Virus record (IMG/VR): IMGVR_UViG_3300028916_000007
Direction: 5' to 3' (one strand)
DNA from: a virus
Length of the DNA: 40,159 nt
Positions 3,309 through 40,123 of this stretch are shown one piece after another. The notes under the pieces were generated by a model. It was not told the DNA's origin and made no database searches. It saw only the letters and a program-made list of their open reading frames with translations. Positions within the stretch are counted from its first letter, which is position 1. Each line of letters starts with the position of its first letter. Position numbers and translations under genes: made by a program.

Positions 3309-3592
3309 TCCCTGCCCATGCTCGTTTTTGCGACATCCAACAGCAGCCTGATTCTATCTGCCCTCATGCCAGCGAGCCTGTAGGCCCGCTGCGCTTCGGC
3401 CATTTTCGGCTGAAGGTCCTGGAGCTTCTTTTTGATCTGATCTGCTTTTCTCGACCCGTCCTTGAACTCCGCCAGATCCGCCGCGAGTTCCTGTTGCTTG
3501 TCTTCGATTTTCGCCAAATCCTGAAAAGCATTCTCAAGAGCGTCGAATGCCGCGTTTACGTCATCTACTGATATCGTTTTAATCAACTCCAT
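3305..3592 (-). CDS. Coiled-coil protein at the distal end of the tail-fibre operon (possible fibre assembly factor)
   Basis: The ATG at 3592 overlaps the TGA of the upstream fibre gene (TGATG). Heptad-rich, charged sequence. Confidence 0.4.
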   Translation of the reverse strand: MELIKTISVDDVNAAFDALENAFQDLAKIEDKQQELAADLAEFKDGSRKADQIKKKLQDLQPKMAEAQRAYRLAGMRADRIRLLLDVAKTSMGRD

Positions 3593-4293
3593 CAAATTTT
3601 CTGAATGTAACAAAGTGCTATGCAGAAGGGCAGGCTTGCCACCGCGTCTCCCGTGAAGCTCGTGCCTTCTGCTGCGCTGTGGCCGTGTGACGATCCGCTT
3701 CCCGCCGATCCGACGCTTGATCCGGTTTTTGCATAGAGAGCAATCTCGCTGCCACTATAGGCATCGTCCCACGCCGCAGGCCGAGTATCAGAATATGTGT
3801 GCGAGTGTGCCGCCATTTCTCCGATCGTCACTGCATGGCCGTCCACCGCAATTGTTCCGGTCGCGTTGAATGTAGTCGATCCGCCTGTGTCGCCCGGGGA
3901 ATAGGTAGATCCTGCCCCAATCACAAAGCGGTCCCGGAGGTCTATTGTGCCGCCCGAGCCATCGCATAGAGCCCATCCAGACGGAATAGAGGCAATCGAC
4001 CCATACCACATCACCACCAGGCCAACCGGGACGCCTAGGCCTGCGAAACTTGCTGCATGTAGATTGCCCGTGCTCTTGTAGATCAGGTCGGCATCTGATC
4101 CAGAGCCGCTGCCATCATTGCCAGAATACCAAAAAGTAGCTTGCATCTCCGTTTTCGTGTAATAGCTTCCGTCATGCGCATGAGTGGCGAGATAACTAGA
4201 CAACTCTGTATATATAGTCTCGAAGTTGTCCATTTTGCTGGTGGTGATAAGATCATCCTCTGCCCAAGGATCTTCGTTTTTCGTATATGTCAA
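3592..4293 (-). CDS. Tail fibre protein with phage tail-collar domain (paralogue 3)
   Basis: 233 aa. Motifs are SIPSGWALCDG, IDLRDRFVIGAGSTYSPGDTGG and HSHTY, the collar-domain signature G-W-x-CDG...DLR-R...G. Confidence 0.7.
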   Translation of the reverse strand: MTYTKNEDPWAEDDLITTSKMDNFETIYTELSSYLATHAHDGSYYTKTEMQATFWYSGNDGSGSGSDADLIYKSTGNLHAASFAGLGVPVGLVVMWYGSIASIPSGWALCDGSGGTIDLRDRFVIGAGSTYSPGDTGGSTTFNATGTIAVDGHAVTIGEMAAHSHTYSDTRPAAWDDAYSGSEIALYAKTGSSVGSAGSGSSHGHSAAEGTSFTGDAVASLPFCIALCYIQKI

Positions 4294-4305: not shown

Positions 4306-5025
4306 CTATGCATATTTCATGATGTAATATAAGCCATGAAACGCCGGGCGGGGATCAATGGCAGCAAAGCTCGCCGTAGATCCTGCATGCGTGTGGGTGC
4401 CATCGCCGGTCACCATCACATCAGTCGTGCGACCAACCGACGTATAGCTATCATCAGGCGTGTCATAATAATCAATCGAATAAAAATAACCATCTCCAGC
4501 CCACACGCCGCTATATTCGATGAATGTATGGGCATGCGTCGGCAATTCGGCGGTCGTGAGGGCATGATCCCCAATCGTAACGCTGCCGGTTGGCGTTATG
4601 GTGCCATTCCACGAAGCCGGGCCTCCTGTATCATTTACTGCATAGGCACTCCCCGCACCAACAACGAACCTGTCTCTTAGATCAGGAGTCGCATAACCCC
4701 CATAGGTTCCACCATCACAGATGTGCCAGTTCGTGGGTACATTCGCATCAGTGCCAGACCATATCATTATACAGCCGAGGGGCATAACGGCGGCTACCAG
4801 ATCGCTGAAATGATTGCCATCCAACTTGTCGGCGTCGAATCCGATATAGAATGACGTGGTAAAAAATGTTGCATCTGATAGCGTTTTCGTGTAATATCTG
4901 GCGTCGTGGTTATGGGCGTCGGCATCAGCTTTCGCTTCATCCCATTGAGTCTCTATCCAGTTAAAGGCGGCTCCGGTCAATTGGTCAGAAGACATCCACG
5001 GATAATTATATTTAATATAGCCCAA
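4306..5025 (-). CDS. Tail fibre protein with phage tail-collar domain (paralogue 2)
   Basis: 239 aa. Motifs are VPTNWHICDG, PDLRDRFVVGAGSAYAVNDTGG, HAHTF and a DADKLDGNH fibre motif. Confidence 0.7.
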   Translation of the reverse strand: MGYIKYNYPWMSSDQLTGAAFNWIETQWDEAKADADAHNHDARYYTKTLSDATFFTTSFYIGFDADKLDGNHFSDLVAAVMPLGCIMIWSGTDANVPTNWHICDGGTYGGYATPDLRDRFVVGAGSAYAVNDTGGPASWNGTITPTGSVTIGDHALTTAELPTHAHTFIEYSGVWAGDGYFYSIDYYDTPDDSYTSVGRTTDVMVTGDGTHTHAGSTASFAAIDPRPAFHGLYYIMKYA

Positions 5026-5060: not shown

Positions 5061-5762
5061 TCACGCCTTTTGGATATAACAAGCCGCGTAATATTGCGGC
5101 ATCTTGGTCTGCCCCGATGTCCCCGTAAAGCTCGCGGTGTGAGAATGCGCATCACCCGAGCCAGTTGAACCGGTAGATAAGCCAGTCACCGTACTCTGCA
5201 GACCGGCCCCGACCAGTCCCGCCCCCCACGTGCCCCATTTGCTATTTCGGTTTCCGCTATAATAATCCGTATATGTGTGTGTGTGCTTTGCTATCTCTCC
5301 TGCCGTTAGCGCGTGCCCAGCAACCGTTATAGTTGCCGTTGTGGTTACGGTATTTGCTCCACCTGTATCTCCTTTCGAGTAGTGGCTTCCAGCTCCCACT
5401 ACAAACCTATCTCGCAGGTCGGGTGTACCGTTTAGGCCATTGCAGAGCAGCCACCCGGACGGGATTGAAGCCTCGCTTCCTGACCACCAAGCGATTACAC
5501 CAGATGGCGATCCGGCAGCTATGATCTGATCGCTCGTGTAGTCATCCAGGGTTGCGGCGATCAGGCCGGAACCAGCGCCGTCGTTGGCTGAGGTGAAATA
5601 GCGGGCGGCGGCTTCTGCTTCGGTATAGTACCGCTCGCTATGGGTGATGGCATCGATATATGAGCATGCCTGAGAGTACATGCCTTCCAGATTGTCCAGT
5701 GCCGTGAGCTTTTGCGCTGTGGTATGGCCGTGCTCCAACCATGTCGTCTTGCTGTAGCTCAT
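5061..5762 (-). CDS. Tail fibre protein with phage tail-collar domain (paralogue 1)
   Basis: 233 aa. Motifs are SIPSGWLLCNG, PDLRDRFVVGAGSHYSKGDTGG and HTHTY. Confidence 0.7.
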   Translation of the reverse strand: MSYSKTTWLEHGHTTAQKLTALDNLEGMYSQACSYIDAITHSERYYTEAEAAARYFTSANDGAGSGLIAATLDDYTSDQIIAAGSPSGVIAWWSGSEASIPSGWLLCNGLNGTPDLRDRFVVGAGSHYSKGDTGGANTVTTTATITVAGHALTAGEIAKHTHTYTDYYSGNRNSKWGTWGAGLVGAGLQSTVTGLSTGSTGSGDAHSHTASFTGTSGQTKMPQYYAACYIQKA

Positions 5763-7561
5763 GCCCCTCCATTCGTATATGTGGCGTTCACCTGATAGCT
5801 TTCCAGCGCGCTCTTGATCCGATTGAAGTTCGCCCTGAAAAGCTCTACCCCGCTACCCCATGCAGCCGAAGCCGAGTCCCCGCCCCAGAAAACTACCTCG
5901 TCAATTTCACCCACTGCTTCCGATGGGCTGATGAAGGAGTAGCTATGGAAGACAGCATCATTTGTGATGTCTGGTGTGCTTGTGTGTGCTTTTCGGAATA
6001 CGCACGCTCCTCCCTGCCAGAACTCGATGTATAGGGCGCGGTCTGCTTCTTCGAAGCAGGGCCAAGAGTCATCCGAAACAGTCACCCCTGGATAGGCAGT
6101 GGTGAAAGGATTGGGCCTATCGGCTGTAGCGAATGTATGAGAAAAATTGTACAGTTTGGTTACGCCAGTCGAATCGCTTACGCCTTCACTGACCGTGTAT
6201 TGTAACTCATACGCTTTATTAAGAAAGTTTTCCCAGTCTTCTTGAACTGGGCCGTACACCGCCTGGACAGCGTACTCTGTGTCCCCGTCTTTCACGCTCT
6301 CGTTCACTGAGCAGATCAGGATATCTTCATCAATGCTCTGGTAGTCCCACGCCTGGAGGACTCCTGCAGCAAGCCCGGCCCGGCGCGTCTTGTAGCTGAT
6401 TTGGATGCCATCGACGCCGTACTCTGTGAGCTTCGCATTGGCATACTCACCGGCAGCGGTGATCGACTTCAGAGACTCATCTACCGTGATGTGCTCGACC
6501 TTGCCACTACCCACGCCCTGGCGGGCAGCATTGGCAGCAATTGCTGTGAGGTCTTCCGCCTTGCTCTTGGATTTCCACAGGCCGTAGTAGACGACCACGA
6601 TGGAAGCTGATTGTGCGGGCGCGGTTTCAAAAGTCAGAGTCTCGCTTTCCACTGCATAGTAGCACTCATAGCTTCCAGCGTCCGTGCCCTTCTGGCCGAT
6701 GGTTTTGGCAGCTCCGGCCACAGCGACGGATGTCACCCGGTTCACAGGATAGCCGAGCGGGAAGGTCTTGGTGGTGCCGTCCCCCAGGAAGGCTTCGGTC
6801 TGCTCGGCAGTTTCTTCGTAGCCGCCAACCACTATCTCAGTATTTCTGTATTTCTCATTGCCCCTGGTGATTGTCAGTGAGTCCTGCAGGATGTCGGCAC
6901 CATCCGATACGCTCCATTCAGCAGCATATAGCGTCCGGCTGTGAAAGTAGAGCTTGAGGTCATAGTCCAGATAGCAGACGAATCCGCAGGCCTCAGCGAG
7001 TTTGGAAAATCCTTCGTATACCGACTTGTTTGAGATGGCGATCTCATCCATGAGGTTGCCGCCTTCGATATAGCCTTCGGTGACGCCTTCCTCCCCCAGG
7101 TACTCACTCAGAATCTCCCGGACAGCGTCACCTGCAAGCTTGTCTTCAGCGGCGTAATCCGCCATCCGCCAATCCAGGATCGAAGAGAGATCAGCCGCTT
7201 CAATCGAATGGAACTTGATGGCCGTGCCTGGTATTCGTATTGTCTGGCAGCTTTGCACCACCCCCATGAAGCGGATTTCATTGTCTAGATTCCTGATATG
7301 CACTAGCTGCCGCTCATAGAAAGTGTATGCCCCGGATGCATCGTACACAGTGAAGCTGGCGGTGGACCTGTGATCGGCATTGTGCTCGATGTTCAAGCCG
7401 GATTCATTCAGCCACAGGTGGCCGATTCCGGCCCAATCGTCATCAAGCAGCACAGAATCATTTTCCAGCAGCTCAGCATCATTCTCCAGGAGAGTGGACG
7501 TATAGAGATCCGTGGTGCCCACAGTGACCAGTGGATCAGGCATTACAGGATCAGGCATCAC
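5759..7561 (-). CDS. Tail-tip / baseplate-like structural protein
   Basis: 600-aa ORF, second gene after the tape measure, with ATGA-type overlaps on both sides. The call is positional. Confidence 0.45.
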   Translation of the reverse strand: MMPDPVMPDPLVTVGTTDLYTSTLLENDAELLENDSVLLDDDWAGIGHLWLNESGLNIEHNADHRSTASFTVYDASGAYTFYERQLVHIRNLDNEIRFMGVVQSCQTIRIPGTAIKFHSIEAADLSSILDWRMADYAAEDKLAGDAVREILSEYLGEEGVTEGYIEGGNLMDEIAISNKSVYEGFSKLAEACGFVCYLDYDLKLYFHSRTLYAAEWSVSDGADILQDSLTITRGNEKYRNTEIVVGGYEETAEQTEAFLGDGTTKTFPLGYPVNRVTSVAVAGAAKTIGQKGTDAGSYECYYAVESETLTFETAPAQSASIVVVYYGLWKSKSKAEDLTAIAANAARQGVGSGKVEHITVDESLKSITAAGEYANAKLTEYGVDGIQISYKTRRAGLAAGVLQAWDYQSIDEDILICSVNESVKDGDTEYAVQAVYGPVQEDWENFLNKAYELQYTVSEGVSDSTGVTKLYNFSHTFATADRPNPFTTAYPGVTVSDDSWPCFEEADRALYIEFWQGGACVFRKAHTSTPDITNDAVFHSYSFISPSEAVGEIDEVVFWGGDSASAAWGSGVELFRANFNRIKSALESYQVNATYTNGGA

Positions 7562-9261
7562 AACTCCGCAGATATCGCTATATATGCCGCCGTGTCGTTC
7601 TCAGCCGCGAACTGGTAGTTCCGCCAATCCGCAAGCGCATCCGTCATGGTGGATATCAGGAGCGTGACATATTTCCCTGCAGTATATCCCTCCAACGAGA
7701 TGGCATTGCATGTGTATATCGTTGTTCCATCATAAAGGCAAAAAGTACCGCTCACATCTATCGATATTGCAGCACAGCGCATTTCAGGATGGAAAACCAT
7801 GATCTGTGCGTTTCCGTCCGCGCTTTTAATTCCGGTACCTAATCGGTGATAGGTCTTGCCCGCCGCGCCATCCTTCCAGTAGAAATACGTGCAATGAGCC
7901 AACTCTTGCTTGTAGTCGCGCGGGAGAAATGGGAGGCACACGGCACCGGCATTAAGCTGCACATCTGAAATATATAGCAAATCATCGACCACTGCATCGG
8001 TATCATCTACCCAGATGAAAACCGCTAGATTCGCCATGCTGGCTGTATCGATGCTGATGTTTTCGATTTTGTGTATTGTCCAGGTATCGGCCACGAGTGC
8101 CATGTTTGCTGGTACGTTCTCCGCCGTCCAGTTTGCCGCCAACGTGGGGTTCGCACCTTCAGCACCCCATGATGCAACTACGTCGCTGGTGACAACATCT
8201 GCAGTAGACGACCAAGACAGCACTGCCACCCGGATATTCTCGATGACCTTCCCCGTCACTGTCCGGGCCTTGAATTGCAGGCTGGCTGTCTTCCCTGCGT
8301 ATCGAATAGAATCCTTACTTTCGATGATTTGCAGAATTCCAAATTTCTTGTTTTGTGTCTCGACTTCGAACTTAGCGGACGCGGCGCCGCCTGTTGGTAC
8401 GACTGATGCATCCTGGCTGACATCAACGATATCATTTCCATCAGAAAGCAGTATCCAGCGATCTATTAGATACGTATCGTCTGAATTGGCTGGCGTAGTT
8501 GCTGAGGTGAACACCGTTGCCCTTTGAGATATCTGGAAAGAGCCGTTTACTAATGCCTGGCGATATACGCCGTCCGTCATCAGATCGGCCCAGGAAAGCC
8601 CCGCGGCCTGGGCTATATCTGCTATGAGAGTCTGCCCATTGGTGCCGACTCCGAGCCTTGCCGGGGTGCTGGCGGCGGTCGCTGCCCACATATCCCCCTT
8701 CGTGGTGAGGTCGGCTTTGAGCGGCATTGCAAGGATTGTTTGGGCCTCTGATAAGGTTTTCTTGACAAATGCCCCTGATTCAGAGGCTACAAGGAAATCA
8801 TTGGCCGCCGTGGCCAATGAGTGTTTCAGGAAGGCCGTGTCATGCAGGCCATCCAGGAGATCCACATTCAGGTTGGCGACTTTCACGGCGCTCGTGATTG
8901 TCATTGGGGCAGCACCGCCATCGGCCAGATCCAGATTCAGAGACTGGGCTCGTATCTCGTAGGCACCGAAATCCACATTGCCGCCCACCGCCGTAACTGG
9001 CCAGACTTGCCGCCACACTGCGCCCCCAGTGGATGCATCCACGCACTCCCAAATGGCCGTCGTAGTGTACCATCTGCTGCCGGTTGCATAGCCTTCGCTA
9101 TCATCGTTGTCTGCATCCGGATCTAGCGCCCCGGCATTCCAATTGCTTTTTGCTAGATAGGCATCTATGATATCGGCATTCGTATTGAAATATGAAATCA
9201 GATTGGCGCGGGTAGAGACTCCCGCGACAAGTTTCTCCAGTGCTATTCGTGTAGTCGTCAT
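7558..9261 (-). CDS. Tail fibre / receptor-binding-like protein
   Basis: 567 aa, immediately downstream of the tape measure. The N-terminal motif DDSEGYATGSRWYTTTAIWECVDASTGGAVW and LNVDLLDGLHDTAF are typical of phage fibre proteins. Confidence 0.5.
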   Translation of the reverse strand: MTTTRIALEKLVAGVSTRANLISYFNTNADIIDAYLAKSNWNAGALDPDADNDDSEGYATGSRWYTTTAIWECVDASTGGAVWRQVWPVTAVGGNVDFGAYEIRAQSLNLDLADGGAAPMTITSAVKVANLNVDLLDGLHDTAFLKHSLATAANDFLVASESGAFVKKTLSEAQTILAMPLKADLTTKGDMWAATAASTPARLGVGTNGQTLIADIAQAAGLSWADLMTDGVYRQALVNGSFQISQRATVFTSATTPANSDDTYLIDRWILLSDGNDIVDVSQDASVVPTGGAASAKFEVETQNKKFGILQIIESKDSIRYAGKTASLQFKARTVTGKVIENIRVAVLSWSSTADVVTSDVVASWGAEGANPTLAANWTAENVPANMALVADTWTIHKIENISIDTASMANLAVFIWVDDTDAVVDDLLYISDVQLNAGAVCLPFLPRDYKQELAHCTYFYWKDGAAGKTYHRLGTGIKSADGNAQIMVFHPEMRCAAISIDVSGTFCLYDGTTIYTCNAISLEGYTAGKYVTLLISTMTDALADWRNYQFAAENDTAAYIAISAEL

Positions 9262-12200
9262 CTTACCGGCACTGCTCCATTCAGTTTCAGTTGTTTCACT
9301 ACTCGATCCATTAGGGCATTAGTGACTTCCTTCCCATCCAGATACCAGCGGTGCTCTGTGTGATCTTCTATGACGATTGGCCGTGATCCTGCGCTACCCA
9401 ATCCGGCATCGGCGAGCGACAGGAACATTCGCGTGAGCTTGGCCGGAAGAATCAGCTCCGGCCCGGCCTCGCCTGCTATCACTTTCTGCGGTCCGTCGTC
9501 TATCAGTGCCCCACGAGCGGCGAAAATCCAGGGCAACTGATAGCCTCCGCCTCCACCGCCTCCACCAATGTAGCGATCATCCAAAGGCATGATCGAATCC
9601 CGAACGGCCCGATTGTAGTCAGGGCATCCGCCCCCCAATGGGCATGGGCCCGTAGTGGTCTGTCTGTATCCATTAGTTGACCAATCCCCGGTTGGCGCTA
9701 GCCAATCGTCATCGCCGCCGAAATTCCAATCCATGTACCCGCCGCCTCCGCCGCCACCGCCATATCCGCTATTGATGCTGGCATTGATGTTCACAGATAC
9801 ATTTATCTTGGCCAGTTCCGTTGCAATTTCAGTGCACGCCTCTTGTATCTGTGTCTGAGCTTCGGATAGATCTGTGAGCATCTGGTCCCAGGTTTCGGCC
9901 CACTTTGTAGCCCAGGCGGTGAGTGCGCCTTCTGCATTGAGAATCATCTGGTTTATCGCGTCAACCGTGCTCGTTCCGGCGTCCGTCATGGCGGATGTTA
10001 GTCCGGTTTTGACCTCATCTACATAGCCCGATATGCTCGGCCACATCTCTGAGAAGGCGGACTTCACACCTGTCAGTATCTCCTGGAAGGAAGTGATTGA
10101 AGTATTGCGGACATCGATGATGGCTTCCCAAGCGCTGTCGCGAAAAGTCGTAACCTCGGCAGTCAGCACTGTATTGATCTGCTTCCAATAGGTCGCGCCC
10201 TCGCTTTTGATTATGCCCCAGGATATCCTGAAGAAATCTTTCAGACTGTTTATGACTCGCTGCACCTGCTTGCTCATGCTGGCCAGGCCCGTGATGCTGA
10301 AATAAGCGGCCATCGCGTCAGGATCTACAGCGGCAGCAGTGCCACCGGTTGCCGTGCCCTCGGCGAAGCCCCTGACCCCATAGGCTCGCAAGGCTGCATA
10401 GAGCAGATCCCACCGCTTGGTTTTGGTGGGGATGACAAATTCGGGATTGGCTGGACCATCCTCACCAATGACGGCCAGCTCCGGCCCGCTGGTCACCGTT
10501 CCGCTGGCGTATAGGTGGCCGAACGGATTCTCTGTGAATAGTTTGGAAGCGGCTGAGCTTACGGCGCTGGCGGCGCTCCGAAGCGATCCCGCGCCCGTGC
10601 TCAGCGCGCTACCTGCATCCGATCCGCCCGACCTGATTGCGCTACCGGCGTTGTAGCTTTTTGTGAGGATGTCGGATGCCCCTAGGCTCAGCTTCGAGGC
10701 AGCGTTCCCGGCACCGTTCTGGATGGCAGAGCCTGCGTATGTGCCCTTGAGCTGAAAATCACTCGCAGCGGCATTAATCTTAGCGGCCAGAGCGGCTCCG
10801 GCACCGCCCGCGCTGGTCTGGATGGCTGAGCCTGCATACTGTATCTTGCTCTGCAGGCCACTGATAGCGGCGGATACCGCGCCGGAAAAGCTTGATCCGG
10901 CCACCTGCACGCGATCGTACAGGATTCCGCCAGCTTCGGCGAATCTCTGCTGAGCCACCTGGCCGATGATGGCTATTTCTCTGCCCGCGCTATCCAGGCC
11001 GATCCTGACGCTTCCCGCCCCTATCTCAGAGCCTATCTTGATGGCGTTGGCAGCTTCTTTTGATCCGCCGATGAGGGTACGATATAGCTCCTGCGCTGCT
11101 GATTTTTCGGTCGACGCGGCATCCTTCGCGGCTTCAGTTGTGGTGGCCGCTGCTTCTTCCGCAGCTTCCGTTTCGATCTCAGCTTCCTCCTCGGCAGCAG
11201 CGATCTCTATCTCTGCCGCTTCTTCTGCGGCGGTCTTGTGGGCTGCATCGTATTCGGCCTGGCCTTTGGCGAACTCTGCCATGATTGGCGCAAGGTCTTC
11301 GGGTCGTATGTATCCGTCTGGAGCGGACTCAGACAACAATTTTTTAGTACTTTCGAAGTTTGCTCCGGTCAATCCCATTTGGTATGCCCAATCTTTCGCA
11401 GATACATCGGGCACAACAGTTTTTATTTTTGGATCTTCCCACGGCTTGAGTTTATACTCGCCGTTCATCCAATAGCCTTTCATTTGGCCGCCGCCTGGAC
11501 CAACCGAACCCGATATGGATTTTATCTTTTCGGTGATGTCCTCGCCGGCGACTGTGGTCACAACGGTTACCGATCTGGTTTCACCATCTTCGGGCAGTGA
11601 ACTCCCGCCGAGCCAGTCCACCGTAGCGGCTATTGTGGTATCAAAGTCCGATGCTTCCCAAATGCCCTCTGCATCTTTTCGCCACTGGGTGGCCTGCTCG
11701 ATGATGCTATCCCCGGCCCCTTCCCATGCAGAGTTCATGGCTCCGCCGATGATCTCCAGGATGGCTGCGCCTATTGTGCCCTTTCCAGCAGTCAGAACGG
11801 TATTGGCGAAGCCTGTCACGAAATCGTAGGCCGCTTTGAGTGCCGTCTTCCCGAAGTCTATTGCAGAGTGGAATAGCGCCGAAAAATTGCTGCCTATTGA
11901 GCTGCCGTTGCTCTTCCAGTAGTCGGCGATCTTGTCATAGATCCATTTTCCAAGATCTACGACCCCCTTCACAACTGAATGAGCGAAGCTCTCGCCGAGC
12001 TTCTTCGGACCGTCCTCTGCTATCCAGCTATCCCATCCAGTCTTGATTTTCTCGTAGATTGACTTGGCATAGTCAGCAACTTTTCCGAGCCCGGCCTTGA
12101 TCTTGTCTCCAATCTCTTTTCCAGCCGTGGCAAAATCCACTGAGCTGATACCGGATTTGAATTCCGTCCAAAATTCTTTCAGCTTCGCTAGACCGGCCTT

Positions 12201-18808: not shown

Positions 18809-19012
18809 TTAGCTCGCCTTCTTCATGACTATCTTCTCGCCGCCACTCCATTTCCGAAGGGCTGCAATCATCGGAAAGAGTACGGTGCCTATCGCAGCTA
18901 TCTGTTCTACAGACAATTGGATCAGGCCGAATGAGGCCGCCAGTGATGCCATTGTGCCCAGGAATGCTATTAGCATAGTCTGAGACTCCCAAGGATATTG
19001 TTCATCTACCAT
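18809..19012 (-). CDS. Two-TM small membrane protein (holin-like topology)
   Basis: 67 aa with two hydrophobic segments (MLIAFLGTMASLAASFGLI and IAAIGTVLFPMIAAL) and a basic C-terminus. Confidence 0.45.
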   Translation of the reverse strand: MVDEQYPWESQTMLIAFLGTMASLAASFGLIQLSVEQIAAIGTVLFPMIAALRKWSGGEKIVMKKAS

Positions 19013-19083
19013 ATCAGTACCTCATGCATCGAGCCACCAATGGCTCACGGGATTTATTATTGACATTATTATGAAAAATATGG

Positions 19084-19434
19084 TTATTTGTTGAGATGCT
19101 TCTCGATATATTTTTTCAGTTCGCCGCTATGCGCCTCTACCGCTTGCGTGATGAATTTGGCATGGCCGGTCGTGTGATTCAATGTCATATCCTGATGCTG
19201 CCGGAAAATGTAGTCTTTGGCCGCGCCACCGCCGCCCACATAGCAGCGAGAGTTCTTGTCGTCGCGCTCCACTCCTAGCGAATTCCTCATAGTGCCGCCG
19301 CGCACCAGTGCCACCGGGCAGCCTTCTTTCGCTTCGGTCAGGATCGACCCGCGGGCCAGCTCCTCTACGCCGTCCATAGCCTTGTCATGCTCCGACTTCA
19401 GGAAGGCGGAGTGATCCCACTTGATGACAGCCAT
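19084..19434 (-). CDS. HK97 gp10-like head-tail joining protein
   Basis: 116 aa. Overall resemblance to the HK97-gp10-like family (..MDGVEELARGSILTEAKEGCPV..GTMRNSLGVE..GGGGAAKDY..HAKFITQAVE), plus position. Confidence 0.5.
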   Translation of the reverse strand: MAVIKWDHSAFLKSEHDKAMDGVEELARGSILTEAKEGCPVALVRGGTMRNSLGVERDDKNSRCYVGGGGAAKDYIFRQHQDMTLNHTTGHAKFITQAVEAHSGELKKYIEKHLNK

Positions 19435-19555
19435 AGAAATATATCCTACGAAATGCTATCTATGCATATGATACTCACGAAAACCGTAGGCGGTAGAGCC
19501 GTAATCGAAGAGATACCAGACTTCACTCACGAACTTGAGGAATTGGGTATAGTGA

Positions 19556-19870
19556 TCACGTATACAGCACAGTTGCATATGCCCCGCCCTTCTCATCCCA
19601 CTTCTTTTCTATCTTCAGGATGGGCGGATTCTTCCCGCCGTATGTGATTTTGGCGCTATCTGCAATCGTCGGATGTCCATCGAGATAGATCTGCAGGGAG
19701 GAAACGGCAGCAGTGCCGTTCTTGTCGATGATGTTTTTGACCACCTCCTTGGCATGGCAGGCATAAGCTACCGCTGCGGAATATACCGGCCCGTAAAGCC
19801 CGGTGCTGCTCACGGCCTGGATGGAAACGGACTGTGCCATTTCGTCCGGGAAGTCATCAGCCAGACTCAT
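19556..19870 (-). CDS. Head-closure / head-tail adaptor-like protein
   Basis: 104 aa. Size and position are typical of a head-closure protein. No strict motif. Confidence 0.4.
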   Translation of the reverse strand: MSLADDFPDEMAQSVSIQAVSSTGLYGPVYSAAVAYACHAKEVVKNIIDKNGTAAVSSLQIYLDGHPTIADSAKITYGGKNPPILKIEKKWDEKGGAYATVLYT

Positions 19871-20069
19871 ATCTGCACCAATCCAACCCCAATACGGTGA
19901 GTATCTCCTCTACGAAAGCCGCTTCTTTGTGGCAGGACCAAATGGGGTTTCCATCGGTATCTTGCAACACGACCCAATCATCCTTGAGGGTCACTCTACA
20001 TTTCTGAAACTCTGGCTTTATGTCGATATTCTTCGCGAGAATATCATCAAAATGATTGAGTGGCCTCAT
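19857..20069 (-). CDS. Hypothetical protein
   Basis: 70-aa ORF whose ATG overlaps the TGA of the upstream micro-ORF (ATGA). Confidence 0.4.
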   Translation of the reverse strand: MRPLNHFDDILAKNIDIKPEFQKCRVTLKDDWVVLQDTDGNPIWSCHKEAAFVEEILTVLGLDWCRYESG

Positions 20070-20215
20070 CCTTCCCCCCGGATGATCGCCTTCCGCCGAA
20101 CCGTGCCCACTGCTATCTGATTGAGCTTTTCATCGCAGATGCTTCGCATGTGGCGGATCTCTGCCTCAGTCCAGCTATTCATGATTGCCCGCCAATCTAT
20201 ATCAGTGAACCTCAT
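20066..20215 (-). CDS. Unannotated 49-aa protein
   Basis: Hand translation gives MRFTDIDWRAIMNSWTEAEIRHMRSICDEKLNQIAVGTVRRKAIIRGEG. ATGA overlaps with both neighbours (20212-20215 and 20066-20069). Confidence 0.45.
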   Translation of the reverse strand: MRFTDIDWRAIMNSWTEAEIRHMRSICDEKLNQIAVGTVRRKAIIRGEG

Positions 20216-20622
20216 GAATCCTCCCAATCCGGCCCGGCCAACTCAGTAGACTCAAACTCGTCTGGATATCCGGCCACATCCGCCACCTGCCCCGCTTCCG
20301 GTGCCGTGAAGCTGGCGTTCTCCATGGCAGCCTCGTCTTCCAGCGCCGCAATCACATTCAGCATGGCCTTGTGGCGCTGGCTCCTGGAGGTCTTCAGGCC
20401 ATCAATGTCCTTGTCGAACTCCTTTGCCAGCTTCGCGGCTGCGGCTTTTGCGGCCTTCAGAGCGCCGCCTAGGAGGTCCGATCCTGCCTGGGCATAGAAG
20501 AAAGCGATGGCCTCATCACTCAGAATGGGATCTGTGGTCACATCCACATCCCCGATCATGCCCCTGATCTGGTCCCGGACCAGGGAGAAGTCGGCGGCGA
20601 AGGTATATGTCGGCGCGGTCAT
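20212..20622 (-). CDS. Head-tail connector-like protein (gp6-like position)
   Basis: 136 aa and acidic. SLVRDQIRGMIGDVDVTTDPILSDEAIAFFYAQAG resembles connector/adaptor N-termini. GAGG SD upstream. Confidence 0.4.
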   Translation of the reverse strand: MTAPTYTFAADFSLVRDQIRGMIGDVDVTTDPILSDEAIAFFYAQAGSDLLGGALKAAKAAAAKLAKEFDKDIDGLKTSRSQRHKAMLNVIAALEDEAAMENASFTAPEAGQVADVAGYPDEFESTELAGPDWEDS

Positions 20623-20752
20623 AAAACCTCATGAAAACGTATAGTGACGATTAATCTTCTTTATTGCAGATAAAAACGGCAAATGTGATTCATATCTCTT
20701 CAACTGGTCCATCAGTACGGTCGATCCAGTGAACGTGACATGTTGCTTGGCG

Positions 20753-20868
20753 TCTGTGACTGCGTGGCAACTGATATTCGAATTCGTATCCGACTGCTGA
20801 TTATTCGCATTACGTGCCTGCGAACTGCAATTCGTGGCATTATTCCAATTGCTGCCTGCAATAACTGC
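20753..20868 (-). repeat. DGR template repeat (TR): adenine-rich donor copy
   Basis: Gapless match to 20932-21047 (offset 179). All but one difference lie at positions where this copy has A on the minus strand. Its translation is Asn-rich (SNWNNATNCSSQARNANNQQSDTNSNIS). It lies ~54 nt downstream of the target gene's stop. Confidence 0.85.
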
Positions 20869-20921
20869 TCGACTCGCCCAACCTATTACCGGCCTACGCT
20901 TCACATAGGCACGAATAACGA

Positions 20922-22025
20922 CTACTGTGGCTCCGCGACCGCGCGGCAACCGACAGCCGAACCCACATCCGACCGCCGATTAGACGCACCACGCGCCCGC
21001 GAACCGCAATACGCGGCATTACTCCAAACGCCGCCCGCAATAACCGCAGCTTGTGCCTGGTATGTCCCTTGGCCATAATGAGATCCTCTGGTGCCAGAAA
21101 TATTTTCGTATCCGAACGCGATCGCCGCTGCATAATCCGCGCCTGCTATGTAGCTCTGCTGATTCTGAAGCCAAGTCCACCAGACACCGGACATGTCTTC
21201 CAAGCCGATATTGCTAATCATGCGACGGCCCGTGGTTGATATATGCCCACCCACGGTCGTTGGGTTTGTCGATCCTGCGATATTGACTTCTTCTTCTTGA
21301 CCTGCGTGTAGCTGAGCAAACTCCCAGTCGTCCATCATCCGGGCACCGATGTTCTTCAGGTCATCGGCGAAATCATAGAAATTCCTGGAAACGGACGCGA
21401 CTGCTCCGAATACGGATGCGATAGATGCCCCAGTCCCACTGAGGAGGTAGATCGATGCCCAGAGGGGTGCATAATTCAGGCTGTCGAAGTCGGTAGGGCC
21501 GCCCCACGCAAAGCCTGGAAGGAAGCGCCCATAAGGCCGGTGCAGGAGATCCTGGATGGAGCGGGGTAGGACGTCCCCGGCCAGGTATCCGGTCAGGGAG
21601 TGCCCGCTGATCGTGCCCACTGCCACGCATTCGCAATGAAACATTCCAATTTTCCGGCTGGTGCTGGTCGTGTAGCCAGCCGGAGCAGTGGCGTTGGCAG
21701 ATACCACGAAATCCGGCACCCGTCCGCTTGTTGGCTCGCAGGCGTAAAGTCTGAAGTCCTGCCCGGCCCGATTAGCAGCGATCCTGTAGTCGGTAGCTAC
21801 GGAGTCCCATGCAGACTCATCTGAGAGGTCTAGCTCAACCTCCTCCGGATTGTAATATCCCAGACCATTGATCGAGAGCCGCATCTCGGGAATTATGAGG
21901 AGATACCGATCTGCCCCGGTAGTGCCGCCTGGATATGGCGGCGTCTCGCGCTCGTATGCGCCTAGCCCCTGGGCAGCATTCCGATGCACCAGGGCAGGCG
22001 TAAGGAATTGCCCAGGGATTTTCAT
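20922..22025 (-). CDS. DGR target (variable) protein with C-type-lectin / FGE-sulfatase-like C-terminal domain
   Basis: 367 aa. The C-terminal signature GGVW....YCGSRARG.......VGCRAV matches DGR variable proteins (compare GGSW..N.CRSA.R.......GFR..). The VR lies in its last codons. Confidence 0.8.
   Translation of the reverse strand: MKIPGQFLTPALVHRNAAQGLGAYERETPPYPGGTTGADRYLLIIPEMRLSINGLGYYNPEEVELDLSDESAWDSVATDYRIAANRAGQDFRLYACEPTSGRVPDFVVSANATAPAGYTTSTSRKIGMFHCECVAVGTISGHSLTGYLAGDVLPRSIQDLLHRPYGRFLPGFAWGGPTDFDSLNYAPLWASIYLLSGTGASIASVFGAVASVSRNFYDFADDLKNIGARMMDDWEFAQLHAGQEEEVNIAGSTNPTTVGGHISTTGRRMISNIGLEDMSGVWWTWLQNQQSYIAGADYAAAIAFGYENISGTRGSHYGQGTYQAQAAVIAGGVWSNAAYCGSRARGASNRRSDVGSAVGCRAVAEPQ
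20932..21047 (-). repeat. DGR variable repeat (VR) forming the C-terminal ~38 codons of the target gene
   Basis: Same alignment as the TR. It encodes AGGVWSNAAYCGSRARGASNRRSDVGSAVGCRAVAE. The GC-rich 3' end (GTTGCCGCGCGGTCGCGGAG on the coding strand) is a candidate IMH. Confidence 0.85.
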
Positions 22026-22337
22026 CTAGGCCGCCTCGTAGCGATCTAGCATTCCCTGGAGATCTACCTGATCAGCGAATCCGTATCTCTGCCACGTCGG
22101 TATCCAGTTGGGATCTATGCTCGTGATCGGGACATCGATATAATTTTCAGACCCCTCTGGAGATTCAATCTGAGTGGTCGTTGGCTCCACGAGCATGTAC
22201 TGCAGGAGTCCGATGCCTTTCGCAATCAGCTGATCCTTTGCGTTGCGTTCCCTGCGAGTCTTTGTCGGAAGCTCCAACACATTCTCAAAGTCTTGTCTTG
22301 TCGCAAATCCCATATCAGATGTTGATTTCAGTATCAT
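22026..22337 (-). CDS. Hypothetical protein of the DGR-target module
   Basis: 103-aa ORF whose stop abuts the start of the target gene. Confidence 0.4.
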   Translation of the reverse strand: MILKSTSDMGFATRQDFENVLELPTKTRRERNAKDQLIAKGIGLLQYMLVEPTTTQIESPEGSENYIDVPITSIDPNWIPTWQRYGFADQVDLQGMLDRYEAA

Positions 22338-22345
22338 TTCATCAC

Positions 22346-22687
22346 CTACGTAGTATAATAATAGCTAATTCCCTCACCATCGATGTCTGCATCTATGTAG
22401 ATCTCGGAGAGGTTGACGTTTCCTGCAGGCAGGATTCCCCCCGGTGGGAGCTTTGCGCCGGTTGAGTCCACCGCGCTGTCACCTATGTAGACGTTCCCGC
22501 CATTGTCTGGATCGGCCATGATGATCACTTCCTTCGCGTCGATATCTCCGCCGACCGCCACAGCCGTCCCGGCTGTAGTCACAGTTTTCTGACCAGACGC
22601 AGGCGTAGATCCTCCTCCAGCCACGCTGCCAGCTATCGTATCCAGATCACCCCGGACTTCTTGCGTCCATGTGCCCATTTTTTTCAC
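22346..22687 (-). CDS. Hypothetical Gly/Asp-rich protein of the DGR-target module
   Basis: 113-aa ORF containing GGNVYIGDSAVDSTGAKLPPGGILPAGNVNLSEIYIDADIDGEG, which is beta-rich in character. Confidence 0.4.
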   Translation of the reverse strand: MKKMGTWTQEVRGDLDTIAGSVAGGGSTPASGQKTVTTAGTAVAVGGDIDAKEVIIMADPDNGGNVYIGDSAVDSTGAKLPPGGILPAGNVNLSEIYIDADIDGEGISYYYTT

Positions 22688-22691
22688 CTGC

Positions 22692-23081
22692 CTAATACAA
22701 AATCGCTATGTCTTTGCTTGTGCTCAGCATCACATCTATGGCATTTTCGTCTTGCACAGCACTCGAAAATCCGATCTGCGCCACCCCGGCCACAGCAACA
22801 AAGACTATTGAGCCTTTCACGACCACGTACTCGCATTGAGTGTTGTTGCGATCGCTGGCCAGTATTGCGGCCTGCCCGGGATCGCCGGGGCTGCGCAACA
22901 GTGTCAGAGAAAGATCGGCGTCCTGGAGTGTGCCCATTCGGCGGACCACATCATCGTCATCTACTATGATCTCTTTCTGGGTTCGCTTCGTCACAAATTT
23001 GGCTTGGAGTACGCCCCCAATGGCGATATCATCGATCACCACCCCATCGAATGCAACGCGCTCGAACGCCACCCGCATCAC
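22692..23081 (-). CDS. Tube-like protein, paralogue of 16942-17322
   Basis: 129 aa. See the alignment under 16942-17322. Confidence 0.45.
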   Translation of the reverse strand: MMRVAFERVAFDGVVIDDIAIGGVLQAKFVTKRTQKEIIVDDDDVVRRMGTLQDADLSLTLLRSPGDPGQAAILASDRNNTQCEYVVVKGSIVFVAVAGVAQIGFSSAVQDENAIDVMLSTSKDIAILY

Positions 23082-23086
23082 CTACT

Positions 23087-23791
23087 TCATGTTCGGTCCC
23101 AGTACCATATGTCGAGCTGGTTGTCGGTTTCGTTGGTCCCGGCTGCTTTGGTCAGCTCACCGGCGCCGATCGCATATTCGGCGGTGCGGTCAGTGATCGT
23201 TGCCACGGCTGCTTTGGTGGCCTGTGAATGGACGGATATCAGCTCATCCCCCACGGCCATCCCAGCTACGGTAACGGCGGTAGCGGCGGCGGTGCCATCG
23301 GCGAGGACATGCTTGAGTGCAGCAGCCTTGACTTTGACTCCGCTCGCCCCGACTACCAGGGAGGCATCTTCGGCCAGCACAGCGGCGACACCCGCCGAAT
23401 CCGTGAGGCCATTTCCAGTCAGCAGCGCCACGATATCAGAGAATAGATCCTTGTGCGGCGCTCCTGCTGCGTTCTGCGTCAGGAGATAGCCAGTAGACGG
23501 CACAAGGGTTTCATCGGCAGGCGCTACCTTCAGCACCCCATCGACTTCAGTGAGGCCGGATGAGGCCTGAGTTCCGGCTGCCGTCTCGCCAAGGATCTTG
23601 AGTATGTTGGTCAGAGTCATGATCACCGATGCGTCGCTAGCTTCCGAATCGATGCCTGCCACGCTATCAGCCATCACCGGCGCGGTCTTGGAGTCTAACT
23701 CAGAGAGATCTACATCCAGGGTGCCGCCGGAGCCGGTTTTTAGGCCGACTCCCGCATGACGCCCCATGAGGCTTCTTGGTCTGTTGGCCAT
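23087..23791 (-). CDS. Ala/Gly/Thr-rich structural protein downstream of the capsid gene (possible head fibre/decoration)
   Basis: The internal ATG at 23791 (MANRPRSLMG...) lies 8 nt after the capsid stop. The track start at 23908 would overlap the capsid gene by 110 nt. Confidence 0.4.
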   Translation of the reverse strand: MANRPRSLMGRHAGVGLKTGSGGTLDVDLSELDSKTAPVMADSVAGIDSEASDASVIMTLTNILKILGETAAGTQASSGLTEVDGVLKVAPADETLVPSTGYLLTQNAAGAPHKDLFSDIVALLTGNGLTDSAGVAAVLAEDASLVVGASGVKVKAAALKHVLADGTAAATAVTVAGMAVGDELISVHSQATKAAVATITDRTAEYAIGAGELTKAAGTNETDNQLDIWYWDRT

Positions 23792-23798
23792 GAGAACC

Positions 23799-24713
23799 TC
23801 AGTTGATGCCGATCGGCACAATGAAATCGTTGGTGTGCATCTCGATCCCAATCCATCCACCGACTTCAGCATAGATGTTCTGCCCCTTCTGCCGGGGATA
23901 GTTGGCATCTACATTGTAGTCCTCTGGGATTACCAGCTCAGCGGCCTCGGCGGACTTCAGCACGAGATAGACATAGTTGGCCGGGAAGTAGTCGCTCTTC
24001 ACCATCCAGCTATTGTCCCCGGCTGGCCGTCCGAAGATCCTCGGGCCGATCTTGTCTGCGAAGATTTTTCCAAGGTCGTCTTCCTGGAGAAGATAGTTCA
24101 TGTACGCGGGCCTGCCCGCCAGGTAGAGCGTGCCGATCAGGTCAGGATCGATGTAGTTGAGCGCCTTTCGTAGGTCGTCGTAGGGGTCCATGACGGCATC
24201 GGTCTCGGAGCCATCCCATGCGCCGGCGTTGGTGCCTGAGGTGATTGAGCCCAAAGAGTTGGCTGCTGAGGCACCAACCAGGCCGGTGATGCCCAGGGTG
24301 CTGTCACCGTTGATGATCGTGTAGTTCTCGCGCCTGAGGCATTCCATCATTGCCAGGGAAGTATCCCGATTCCAGAGAGAGGGATCGAGGGCAACCTCAT
24401 CCTCATTCCTCTGGATAGCATCGTCTATCCGGTAGATCTGGAAGAGCTTGTCCTTGGCCTTGTTTCCGACGATATCCGGGGAAGTTCCGCCCAGGCTGAT
24501 CCTGGCGTGGGATACGCCGTCCTGGGGGGTGGACATATCGATGTGCCTGATGACATCCTTTCTGATTTTAGGGGCCACGCCGGGCCGCTGCTCGATGAGC
24601 TGGCGGCCTATGTAGCCGTCCTTGTATCGCTGCTGGAAGTCGAGAATAGTCTTCTGCATATTCTGAATGACTTCCGGGGGAATGGAAGAGCCGAAATTGG
24701 GATCTAGAGTCAT
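23799..24713 (-). CDS. Major capsid protein (positional call, lambda gpE-like arrangement)
   Basis: 304 aa. Gene order is portal, MuF/scaffold, decoration-like, this ORF, then connector genes. No strict motif recognised by eye. Confidence 0.6.
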   Translation of the reverse strand: MTLDPNFGSSIPPEVIQNMQKTILDFQQRYKDGYIGRQLIEQRPGVAPKIRKDVIRHIDMSTPQDGVSHARISLGGTSPDIVGNKAKDKLFQIYRIDDAIQRNEDEVALDPSLWNRDTSLAMMECLRRENYTIINGDSTLGITGLVGASAANSLGSITSGTNAGAWDGSETDAVMDPYDDLRKALNYIDPDLIGTLYLAGRPAYMNYLLQEDDLGKIFADKIGPRIFGRPAGDNSWMVKSDYFPANYVYLVLKSAEAAELVIPEDYNVDANYPRQKGQNIYAEVGGWIGIEMHTNDFIVPIGIN

Positions 24714-24725
24714 CTTGAATACCTC

Positions 24726-25430
24726 CTAGAGCACCAGAGCCTTGATCTGGAAGACCTTGTACACCAGATCTGTGGCCGCCACTATCTGCACAGTTGATGC
24801 AAGCTGCATGGTTATTACGGTGCTTGTTAGCGATTTGACCCGGTTGAGCTGACCGTTGCCGTTGACATCTTCCAGAAGGATGTAATCGCCTTCCTTGAGA
24901 TTGAGAAGCGTCAGGTTGGCAGATGAAAAAGTCGCAGTCTTGTCGCCAATCTCGATGTTGCTGGCAGGGGTCTTGTAGCTGGCATCTGTGAGAGTGCAGT
25001 CCTCAAGGGCCTGAGCCAGGACGGTCGTGAGCATCGTTTCGCCAGCGTTGCTTCCGGCCTCGTTGAGAACTCCTAGGTAGCTGGCTGCATTTCCGACAGG
25101 CGCGGCCTCAAGGAAATCACCGTCTACGATGGAGGTGTTGGCCTTGGCGATTACCAGAGCATTGATAATGGCGCCTTTGCGGGCTACCCTGACGATATCA
25201 GGAACGCCAGCATCATTGCTCGCCTGGTAGAATCCATCCTCATCCAGGGTTACGCCGTTCTGGGGCTGCACGGAGAAGCCCAGGATAGTGTCGTCGTTGT
25301 CATCCTTCGAGCCTTTGCATGTCCTCGCAGCAGACCGAACCAAAGCCACGCCGAAGGCCACGTTTGCACCGGCAGCGTAAGGCGTGACGCCCGCCGGACC
25401 CTGCTCTATGAGAGTATCCTTCAGAGCCAT
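24726..25430 (-). CDS. Head decoration-like / auxiliary capsid protein
   Basis: 234 aa, between the scaffold and capsid genes (gpD-like position). Confidence 0.35.
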   Translation of the reverse strand: MALKDTLIEQGPAGVTPYAAGANVAFGVALVRSAARTCKGSKDDNDDTILGFSVQPQNGVTLDEDGFYQASNDAGVPDIVRVARKGAIINALVIAKANTSIVDGDFLEAAPVGNAASYLGVLNEAGSNAGETMLTTVLAQALEDCTLTDASYKTPASNIEIGDKTATFSSANLTLLNLKEGDYILLEDVNGNGQLNRVKSLTSTVITMQLASTVQIVAATDLVYKVFQIKALVL

Positions 25431-28608: not shown

Positions 28609-29220
28609 CTAAGTCCTCTTGCCCTTCAAACGAGACTGCCCCCAACCACAATCTACCGCGCCCGCGTTCTGTTCTGCCCACCAGGCCGCCATAGCCACCG
28701 ATAGCACCAGATCATCATGGTCTGCCTCTCGCCAGGCCGAATAAGAATCGTGTGCGGTGACCGGATCGATTTTGACCTTGAAATTCAGAAGCTCGTTCTG
28801 CAAAACCGATGCCAACGGCAGCTTCTTAGAGATCTTTAGCCTGCCGCCCTGAAAGAGCACTTGTAGGCTGCCCACCAGGTCGCGCTTGGGAACCCGCCAG
28901 GTGTCGCCCTCATGAGATGCCTTGTCACCACCATGAATTAGCACGCCCACCGGATCGAGCCCCGCCTGCCTGAAGAGATCGACCACCGGCGCGCCCACCC
29001 CCGTCTGATCGACCACAAGGGCAGCCTGGCCCGCCAGGGCAGGAGATCTCATGATCTCTGTGACTTTGGACACGATCTGAGGATAGGGCACGCCCCGGAC
29101 GCGCTCCAGATGCCTGACCTGATAGGAAGACTCGCTGCCTGGGGCCACCTGATCAAGCACAGAAAGGGCTGTATAGTCGCTGCTCTGGCCGAGATCGAGA
29201 CCTACGTAGAATTTTGACAT
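28609..29220 (-). CDS. terL: Terminase large subunit, C-terminal RNase H-like nuclease domain (separate ORF)
   Basis: 203 aa. It starts MSKFYVGLDLGQSSDYTAL (first catalytic Asp motif) and ends with READHDDLVLSVAMAAWW. Its ATG shares one nt with the TGA of the ATPase ORF. Confidence 0.8.
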   Translation of the reverse strand: MSKFYVGLDLGQSSDYTALSVLDQVAPGSESSYQVRHLERVRGVPYPQIVSKVTEIMRSPALAGQAALVVDQTGVGAPVVDLFRQAGLDPVGVLIHGGDKASHEGDTWRVPKRDLVGSLQVLFQGGRLKISKKLPLASVLQNELLNFKVKIDPVTAHDSYSAWREADHDDLVLSVAMAAWWAEQNAGAVDCGWGQSRLKGKRT

Positions 29221-30002
29221 CAGAACAACGGCTCCACATCATCACTAATTGCTTCTGCTATCATATCGTAGCTGAAGACACTATCTATATTTTCAGTGAA
29301 GGCACAATGATATTCCTGCTCGAACCAGGGGTTTGTTCGCTTCTCTTCTGCTATGAACTCTTTCGTTATGCGTGGGCACATTTCCGCCGGGATTTCATGT
29401 GCTTCCCACAAATCCCGCTGCTCGCTCCAGATATTCCAGAAGTGCCCCCGCTTGCCAAAAGGAGTGCTCATCAGGATATGCCTGCCATTGGACACGGCGA
29501 GCATGGGCCTGACCGTATTGTAGAGCACATCCAAAACCCGGCTCGCTTCGTCTTCCAGCAGCAGAGTCACTGCCGAGAAGGATCTTGCGCTCTTCTCGGA
29601 CCCCGGACGAGCTATGAAGCGATTGCCATTCGCGAATCGGACTGCAAGTTTTGTGTCGGTGCTCAGATAGTCGGAAGGTAGTTCAACCGCGCCCCGGAAC
29701 TCATCGAACTTGAGCATCAACTCAGAGCTCTGGTCTTGAGTGGGAGCGATCACAAGCCCGAAAGAAGGCCTGCGATAGATGGACTCATGAAGCCCCAGGG
29801 CGGCGCATGTTGTACTTTTTCCGCTCTGACGCGAGCAATTGAGGATGATCTTCCTCGAGCGGCTGCGGAGGAGATCGGCCTGCCAGGGATCAGGATGATA
29901 GCCCAGGACTTCCTTGCACCATAAGACAGGATCGGCCCCGTAAACAAGGTCATCGGCCACGGATGGCATTGACAACAGCCGCCTTTGCTTCGGGATACGC
30001 AT
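29220..30002 (-). CDS. terL: Terminase large subunit, N-terminal ATPase domain (separate ORF)
   Basis: 260 aa. Walker A is CSRQSGKSTT and Walker B is VTLLLEDEAS. Confidence 0.85.
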   Translation of the reverse strand: MRIPKQRRLLSMPSVADDLVYGADPVLWCKEVLGYHPDPWQADLLRSRSRKIILNCSRQSGKSTTCAALGLHESIYRRPSFGLVIAPTQDQSSELMLKFDEFRGAVELPSDYLSTDTKLAVRFANGNRFIARPGSEKSARSFSAVTLLLEDEASRVLDVLYNTVRPMLAVSNGRHILMSTPFGKRGHFWNIWSEQRDLWEAHEIPAEMCPRITKEFIAEEKRTNPWFEQEYHCAFTENIDSVFSYDMIAEAISDDVEPLF

Positions 30003-39940: not shown

Positions 39941-40123
39941 GTGAAAATAATGAAATGTCCGAAATGTGGATCACATAACACCAAAGGCGGCCCACTTGGG
40001 TGGGTGAAATGGGCAATAGTTGTCATGGGATGTTTTCTGTTCTTTGTACCGGGGCTCATCCTCTATCTGATCTGGAGGCATCCCATGAAAAGCTGTGTCG
40101 AGTGTGGCTTTATGTGGCAATGA
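39941..40123 (+). CDS. Zinc-ribbon membrane protein
   Basis: 60 aa with CPKC...(TM helix WAIVVMGCFLFFVPGLILYLIW)...CVEC. Its 3' end lies within the terminal repeat. Confidence 0.55.
   Translation: MKIMKCPKCGSHNTKGGPLGWVKWAIVVMGCFLFFVPGLILYLIWRHPMKSCVECGFMWQ

Follow-up and report, generated by a model that had tools for sequence, protein, structure and literature searches.

Organization of the locus

We have analysed a locus within the viral genome recorded in IMG/VR as IMGVR_UViG_3300028916_000007, a stretch of 40,159 nucleotides (nt) that we refer to as the window. The locus resembles a diversity-generating retroelement (DGR), with a template repeat (TR) and a variable repeat (VR), and there is no gene for a reverse transcriptase (RT) beside them. 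All its features lie on the minus strand. In the direction of that strand the first is the gene of a 367-amino acid (aa) Mtd-family variable protein (20922-22025), in which VR (20932-21047) forms codons 327-365 of the 367. A hairpin (20892-20910) begins 11 nt past the stop codon, and is followed by TR (20753-20868), a short junction (20749-20752) and the tail of a small open reading frame (ORF) (20629-20748).

TR lies downstream of VR at a spacing of 63 nt, and the pair forms the largest repeat family found by a repeat search within 19000-23000. Set at an offset of 179, segments 20762-20868 and 20941-21047 give a gapless alignment of 107 nt in which 81 positions are identical and 26 differ. 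Read on the minus strand from TR to VR, the mismatches comprise 20 changes of A>G, three of A>T, two of A>C and a single C>T (20786 versus 20965), the last being the only one at a non-adenine position, and 25 of the 33 TR adenines in this core are altered. Our alignment and tabulation reproduced all the values given for this core in the initial annotation, as well as its extension by ~9 nt (20753-20761 against 20932-20940) with three more adenine-only differences. The complete pair therefore spans 116 nt without gaps, with 28 of its 29 mismatches at template adenines, of which 37 are present. The translations proposed for the two copies and the placing of VR in the last codons of the ORF were also correct, and TR, described as rich in AAY (Asn) codons, has nine AAT codons in the frame of VR. 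In that frame 17 TR adenines fall at codon position 1, 14 at position 2 and five at position 3, and no adenine-containing codon of TR is able to mutate to a stop codon.

The restriction of the differences to adenines of one copy is a property expected of a DGR. Given 37 adenines in 116 nt, the bias has a binomial P of 2.6e-13 (5e-18 by Fisher's test), and so the dependence on template adenines that the initial reading required is upheld. When the TR adenines were masked, the resulting pattern matched two sites in the window, TR and VR themselves, where none was expected from 100 shuffles. Two copies in the same orientation and reading frame, 179 nt apart, might also have arisen without any retroelement, if the 3' end of the gene was simply duplicated in tandem and the copies then diverged by point mutation. 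The mismatch spectrum is contrary to this, as is the DGR-type RT that follows homologous TRs in relatives of the window. Moreover, 12 distinct VRs of such relatives vary at exactly the TR-adenine sites (22 positions), with almost no variation elsewhere. The spectrum and the RT-bearing homologues together refute a duplication origin, to which we give virtually no credence.

Three non-adenine alleles of the window TR (C at 20851, C at 20836 and G at 20790) are private or rare elsewhere, and all three are also present in VR. Since VR mirrors these alleles it must have been written from this TR lineage.

The target protein is a homologue of Mtd

The product of ORF 20922-22025 matches the Mtd second domain in Pfam (mtd_2nd, PF21916; 2.4e-14) and a PHROG tail protein family (PHROG 11262; 6e-37). 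By tblastn it is 28% identical to Mtd of BPP-1/BIP-1. A phmmer comparison with Mtd in the PDB (1YU1) aligned residues 81-363 with Mtd residues 99-374 (2e-10), and a profile made from 24 sequences extended over Mtd residues 95-376 with an E value of 7e-21, including the VR-bearing lectin domain. The alignment of 24 sequences gave a poor structure model, with a predicted local distance difference test score (pLDDT) of 42, and an alignment of 75 homologues was needed to obtain an AlphaFold (AF2) model with a pLDDT of 76.9 and a predicted template modelling score (pTM) of 0.79. When this model was compared with the PDB using Foldseek, five Mtd variants were the top matches (E values of 1e-17 to 5e-16, TM of 0.63-0.67 over the full length), with 1yu4 matched over 376 columns at an E value of 1.3e-17. 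These were followed by formylglycine-generating enzymes (FGE), and then by the Thermus DGR variable protein TaqVP.

Thus in both sequence and fold the protein belongs to the Mtd family, comprising the second domain and a C-terminal C-type lectin (CLec)/FGE-fold domain, and VR occupies the C-terminus of the latter, as is typical of DGRs. The fold proposed in the initial annotation is therefore confirmed by profile search and by structure comparison. Clustered at 90% identity among 15 billion sequences the protein stands alone, as a cluster of one. A related protein cluster has 103 members, and its variable columns are those of VR.

Target-site elements adjoining the variable repeat

The 3' end of VR is GC-rich (GCCGCGCGGTCGCGG, 20933-20947, minus strand), and its counterpart in TR (20754-20768) contains adenines (GCCACGCAGTCACAG). 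The VR end is the same in 10 of 12 distinct VRs, with a T in one and an A in another at a single position. By analogy, the two ends resemble the initiation of mutagenic homing (IMH) sequence and IMH*, a distinction known from BPP-1 (PMC12875486), where a GC-rich VR end likewise faces an A-containing TR counterpart.

The hairpin between VR and TR has the sequence GCCTATG-TGAAG-CGTAGGC. On folding, it was found at the same place in four variants (the window and the relatives denoted L011, L023 and L029), and the stems of the relatives (GCCTATGC/GCATAGGC, GGTATGCG/CGCATACC and GGAGTACG/CGCACTCC) carry compensatory changes with respect to the window. DGR target hairpins or cruciforms have stems of 7-10 bp placed 4-34 bp past VR, with a GRNA tetraloop (Guo et al. 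2011). The window hairpin fits this description, save that its loop has five nucleotides (TGAAG) and not the four of GRNA as in BPP-1. The locus thus retains the target-site elements of a DGR, a GC-rich IMH-like sequence and a downstream hairpin.

The reverse transcriptase and spacer are missing from a complete genome

Self-comparison of the window reveals an exact direct terminal repeat of 77 nt (1-77 is identical to 40083-40159), and the contig has the same length as the window, 40,159 nt. The assembly is therefore circularly closed, giving a complete genome of 40,082 bp, and the whole replicon lies within the window. This excludes an RT on the same replicon beyond the ends of the sequence. 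A second RT location, elsewhere in the window, was ruled out in three ways. A Pfam scan of 48 window ORFs gave no match to RVT_1, where the same library scored the RT of a relative, Caudoviricetes sp. vir525 (BK063673), at 3.4e-20. A six-frame scan for [YF]xDD returned only three matches, none of them in an RT-like context. Lastly, the best tblastn match of Brt (the RT of BPP-1) and the vir525 RT to the window had an E value of 0.27, whereas Brt against the vir525 RT gave ~4e-57 as a control. The 40,082-bp genome thus lacks the encoded DGR-clade RT of a complete autonomous DGR.

The spacer RNA that flanks TR in a DGR, as defined for BPP-1, is also lacking, and the spacer motif of RT-bearing relatives occurs nowhere in the window. 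There was no tblastn match to Avd in the window at E values up to 1000, and Pfam returned nothing for the flanking ORFs. One candidate for Avd was a 136-aa ORF past TR (20212-20622, minus strand). It was rejected, for neither Pfam nor tblastn with Avd matched it; it belongs to PHROG 1732 (function unknown) and is neither Avd nor RT. The want of an accessory gene of the avd or HRDC type is not decisive, because the RT-bearing relatives are also without avd.

A deletion separates the window from intact relatives

Contigs from IMG/VR, metagenomes and genome collections contain TRs with an exact 45-mer of the window TR. The adenine-masked TR pattern gave no match in IMG/VR, but the exact 45-mer did find relatives. 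It corresponds to the central 45 nt, identical in these TRs, which are followed by a spacer and RT. Their usual order is VR, hairpin, TR, a spacer of ~120 nt, an RT of 339 aa and an ORF of 95 aa, with no avd. The spacer RNA of the RT-bearing relatives is both conserved and structured; 27 base pairs are predicted in it, and 10 of these show compensatory changes. L011 (IMG/VR contig 3300002219_000010) has a TR ~95% identical to that of the window and an Mtd-like protein 70% identical, and in vir525 a gene for a protein of 43% identity is followed by TR and then an annotated RT.

Compared with these relatives, homology in the window stops at 20753, at the end of TR, and restarts at 20748/20749. 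The junction reads CACAGA/CGCC/AAGCAACAT on the minus strand, with CGCC at 20749-20752. The missing segment corresponds to L011 3422-4704 (1,283 nt) and vir525 9353-10634 (1,282 nt), and takes in the spacer, the RT gene and 55 codons from the start of the 95-aa ORF. What remains of that ORF is its final 39 codons and stop codon (20629-20748, minus strand), fused in frame to TR to create a mechanical ORF (20629-20949). The remnant is 75.6% identical in nucleotide sequence to L001 10635-10757, and 63% identical over 60 aa by tblastx.

The 95-aa ORF has no Pfam match. It overlaps the 3' end of RT and runs past it in L001 (10468-10755) and L011 (~4537-4824), and its C-terminal part is also found downstream of RT in L014 and L015. 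Its product is a candidate for an accessory role in this DGR lineage, which has no Avd.

We have asked whether the RT might not be truly missing, the 1.28-kb gap being an assembly artefact or a rare deletion variant of a dominant genome that contains RT. Metagenomic contigs are consensus populations, and TR/VR repeats are known trouble spots for assemblers. Yet the junction joins sequences that are not repeated, the end of TR and the interior of the small ORF, and the contig is circular. Three more assemblies (L003, L033 and L034) share this junction and have the same TR and VR, so that four assemblies from JGI, NCBI and Logan contain it. Over 11.5 kb the NCBI contig, from a metagenome-assembled genome (MAG) (L003), departs from the window by eight substitutions elsewhere; a JGI contig (sample 3300028923) differs once in 2,888 nt, and a Logan contig (SRR21915714) is identical over 1,789 nt. 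No RT-bearing sibling with the right flank of this lineage was found in IMG/VR. An apparent rather than real loss of RT is thus very improbable.

Two classes of template adenine

Comparison of the 12 distinct VRs divides the TR adenines into two kinds. For this the window was used together with L001, L009, L011, L014, L015, L018, L023, L025, L029 and L030. At 22 sites the VRs are hypervariable, with three or four bases represented; these are in the AAT codons and in ATT, GAT, ACG and ATC. At 13 further sites, all with the sequence C-A-G or C-A-C, 11 or 12 of the 12 VRs have G. A fourteenth, the CAC at 20835, has only A or G. These 14 sites make up half of the 28 adenine-site mismatches of the window and are the source of its strong bias to G. 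The trend from CAG or CAC to G is the same in vir525, L014 and L015, and over 11 TR/VR pairs, which are not independent, CAG adenines became G 87 times and remained A twice, while CAC adenines became G 26 times and T once. The differences at CAG and CAC sites in the window are therefore fixed differences between TR and VR, and not the product of random mutagenesis.

The always-G sites include silent positions (GCA>GCG), and selection at the level of the protein is therefore no explanation for those sites. Others fall in codons of residues that are invariant or nearly so among 75 homologues (Gly341, Arg343, Arg351, Gly359 and Arg361), where TR encodes Ser, Gln or His and every VR encodes Gly or Arg. 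The last four always-G sites may be differences of the IMH type that are not transferred, and the remainder are interspersed among the hypervariable sites. The BPP-1 RT is known to have an error profile that varies with the base lying 3' of the template adenine (PMC12875486). An almost complete conversion of A to G would still require an explanation. One unlikely reading is that an additional, programmed recoding of the template operates in this RT lineage, changing A before G or C to G almost deterministically; the mechanism could be context-dictated insertion of C, repair of G:T mismatches in a heteroduplex or A-to-I editing of TR RNA. The two classes bear on how sequence context shapes the error spectrum of a DGR RT.

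The cassette has been truncated repeatedly

In the relatives the cassette has been truncated independently at least eight more times. L009 retains TR and the spacer and has lost RT and the small ORF, with the cut exactly at the start of RT. In L029, TR, the spacer and 86 RT codons are kept, after which comes an IS605-type TnpB. L024 has an insertion of 0.4 kb between TR and the spacer and no RT, and L004 has the opening ~26 nt of TR, which run straight into RT codons ~29-52. L031 retains ~35 nt of TR before the cut, and there is no TR in L005, L006 and L010, or in L007, L008, L012 and L032. VR is intact in all the relatives with truncated cassettes, and differs from one to another. The clade therefore provides a natural series with at least nine different junctions, running from the intact cassette to its complete loss. 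Such repeated loss suggests that it may often be tolerated or favoured to fix a working receptor-binding variant or to dispense with RT. With this series it would be possible to ask how often, and why, phages freeze such a variant.

Mobile elements of IS200/IS605 type invade the cassette in relatives. The TnpB gene (OrfB_IS605/Cas12f-like TNB) that breaks the L029 RT after ~86 codons lies at 2181-3455 of that contig, and the 0.4-kb element of L024 (reverse strand, ~230-640) has hairpin ends and sits exactly between TR and the spacer. TnpB-like genes are also present in the retrieved flanks of L001 (15196-16344), L010 and L018.

A probable relic with a variable repeat that is likely frozen

Taken together, we think it likely that the locus is a DGR relic, which underwent retrohoming in the past and is now without RT, in the complete genome of a temperate siphovirus-like phage. 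As judged from its trace in the sequence, past mutagenic retrohoming acting on an Mtd-family protein is demonstrated. The ancestor would have had an Avd-less cassette of the Mtd-like gene with VR, the hairpin, TR, a structured spacer RNA of ~120 nt, a DGR RT of 339 aa and the 95-aa ORF, and the mismatch pattern and private alleles show that it rewrote VR from this very TR by adenine-mutagenic retrohoming. As alignment to the relatives shows, a single deletion of 1.28 kb then removed the spacer, RT and 55 codons of the small ORF, joining the end of TR to the tail of that ORF. In BPP-1 the spacer recruits RT and primes the synthesis of cDNA. A TR RNA without either RT or spacer should no longer be copied, and the sequence of VR would be fixed. 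VR is thus most likely frozen, present now as part of an ordinary gene. There is just one non-adenine difference between TR and VR, and no private change in TR that is unmirrored in VR, from which it follows that the deletion is young.

The initial annotation concluded that the ligand-binding surface of the protein is hypervariable at present. We cannot uphold this, given a complete genome without RT, a deletion of 1,283 nt, a VR that four assemblies share unchanged and a protein that is alone in its 90% cluster. An adenine-biased footprint of TR and VR is not in itself proof of current hypervariability, and the presence of the engine needs to be checked too.

Several considerations weigh against a frozen VR. 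The four assemblies with identical VRs may stem from related samples, and one VR also recurs in five contigs that have an RT and come from different samples, because of which identity of VR between assemblies is weak evidence of inactivity. An intact TR would be found just as well after a recent deletion as with a TR that remains in use. A requirement for the spacer is known for BPP-1 only. Finally, a co-infecting relative, or the host itself, might provide an RT.

This last point leads to a different view, in which the locus is a non-autonomous DGR that has kept TR and VR and is served in trans by the 90-95% identical RTs of related phages in the community, either by copying of this TR or by homing of cDNA derived from the TR of a helper into this VR. 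The IMH-like end and the hairpin are intact and TR has not decayed, in keeping with such service, and RT-bearing relatives with near-identical TRs are common in similar samples. L009 has kept TR and the whole spacer without RT. However, the structured spacer that flanks every RT-bearing TR is lacking in the window, its VR carries the private alleles of its own TR rather than those of relatives, and the constancy of VR between assemblies and the single-member cluster also count against service in trans. L023 and L024 share a post-TR junction and yet have VRs that differ at adenine sites, as service in trans would allow, but they also differ in the hairpin region, so that recombination accounts for the difference in VR. 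Furthermore, the nested deletions that have removed TR from many relatives argue that TR is dispensable once RT is lost. Service in trans is therefore unlikely in our judgement, and we prefer to regard the locus as an RT-less relic. By analogy with SINEs and LINEs (short and long interspersed nuclear elements), RT-less cassettes of TR and VR could nonetheless form a class of non-autonomous DGRs that persist through an RT provided in trans by related phages circulating alongside them.

Relationship to known DGRs

The initial annotation likened the locus to the DGR of Bordetella phage BPP-1, which comprises mtd with VR, avd, TR, the spacer and brt. The likeness is borne out by the adenine signature, the hairpin downstream of VR and the alleles mirrored between the repeats, and it extends to a target that is a true homologue of Mtd (28% identity, TM ~0.65), a VR at the C-terminus of the CLec domain, AAY-type codons in TR (AAT in the window) and a temperate phage as the carrier. 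The comparison does not hold for the arrangement of the cassette. The window genome is without RT, spacer and avd, and its TR comes straight after VR, 63 nt past it, whereas in BPP-1 TR follows avd. The RT of the intact relatives of the window is only ~36% identical to Brt. The setting differs too. In the window, which is siphovirus-like, the Mtd-like gene is placed between genes for head morphogenesis and genes for the head-tail connector or neck (19084-25430), away from the tail-fibre genes (5759-9261), while in BPP-1, a podovirus, it is part of a tail-fibre module. The Mtd-like gene of vir525 is placed similarly to that of the window.

A closer match is provided by DGRs without Avd, in which the order of target, TR and RT has been termed architecture A1 (Wu et al. 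2018, PMC5758913). The window shares with vir525 and L011 the order of Mtd-like gene with VR, hairpin and TR, and keeps the tail of the small ORF. It differs from them in the loss of the 1.28-kb segment, and with it the structured spacer, the gene of the 339-aa RT and the start of the small ORF (55 codons). On this comparison of sequences the locus is a degenerate form, descended from an Avd-less DGR with a target of the Mtd type.

Some DGRs have been scored as inactive from an absence of polymorphism in VR (Roux et al. 2021, PMC8144416). These resemble the window in being DGR-type loci without sign of current diversification, but they were detected through their RT and still possess it, whereas inactivity in the window is structural, RT having been deleted. 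Our search of the literature found general remarks on the loss or inactivity of DGRs and no description of RT-less relics. Surveys of DGRs start from RT, and so relics without RT escape them; a pipeline anchored on RT would not report the locus in the window.

Genome context

A tyrosine integrase (553-1446, plus strand; Pfam Phage_integrase 7.9e-22, PHROG 1) indicates that the phage is temperate. Other genes assigned with Pfam and PHROG encode RecT, a primase, terminase, a head morphogenesis protein, connectors, a tail terminator, a tape measure protein of 1,823 aa and tail fibres, as in a siphovirus-like phage of temperate habit. Neither the genome nor its 336-aa protein has a relative among GenBank phages, and an Rfam scan of the window matched no family.

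Of the eight substitutions that distinguish L003 from the window over the 11.5 kb compared, seven crowd into 52 nt (20259-20310) inside the 136-aa ORF downstream of TR. They are not specific to adenine, and the cluster may be a recombination patch. The large terminase subunit is apparently split between adjoining ORFs on the minus strand (28609-29220 and 29220-30002) that overlap in TGATG, the 260-aa product matching Terminase_6N and the 203-aa product having a weak match to the terminase PHROG 5909. This could be a true split, a frameshift or a sequencing error. In the tail-fibre region, ORFs of 233 aa (3592-4293, minus strand) and 239 aa (4306-5025, minus strand) adjoin and have in common a 40-nt repeat (4150-4189 versus 4882-4921, 75% identity), which suggests that they may be tandem paralogues.

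The labels of related sequences (for example P0060, P0127 and L001) point to methanogenic or anaerobic communities. Some are bacterial and others archaeal, the latter including Methanosarcinales as the host of vir525, a Methanothrix MAG annotated 'phage major tropism determinant' and a Pacearchaeota MAG.

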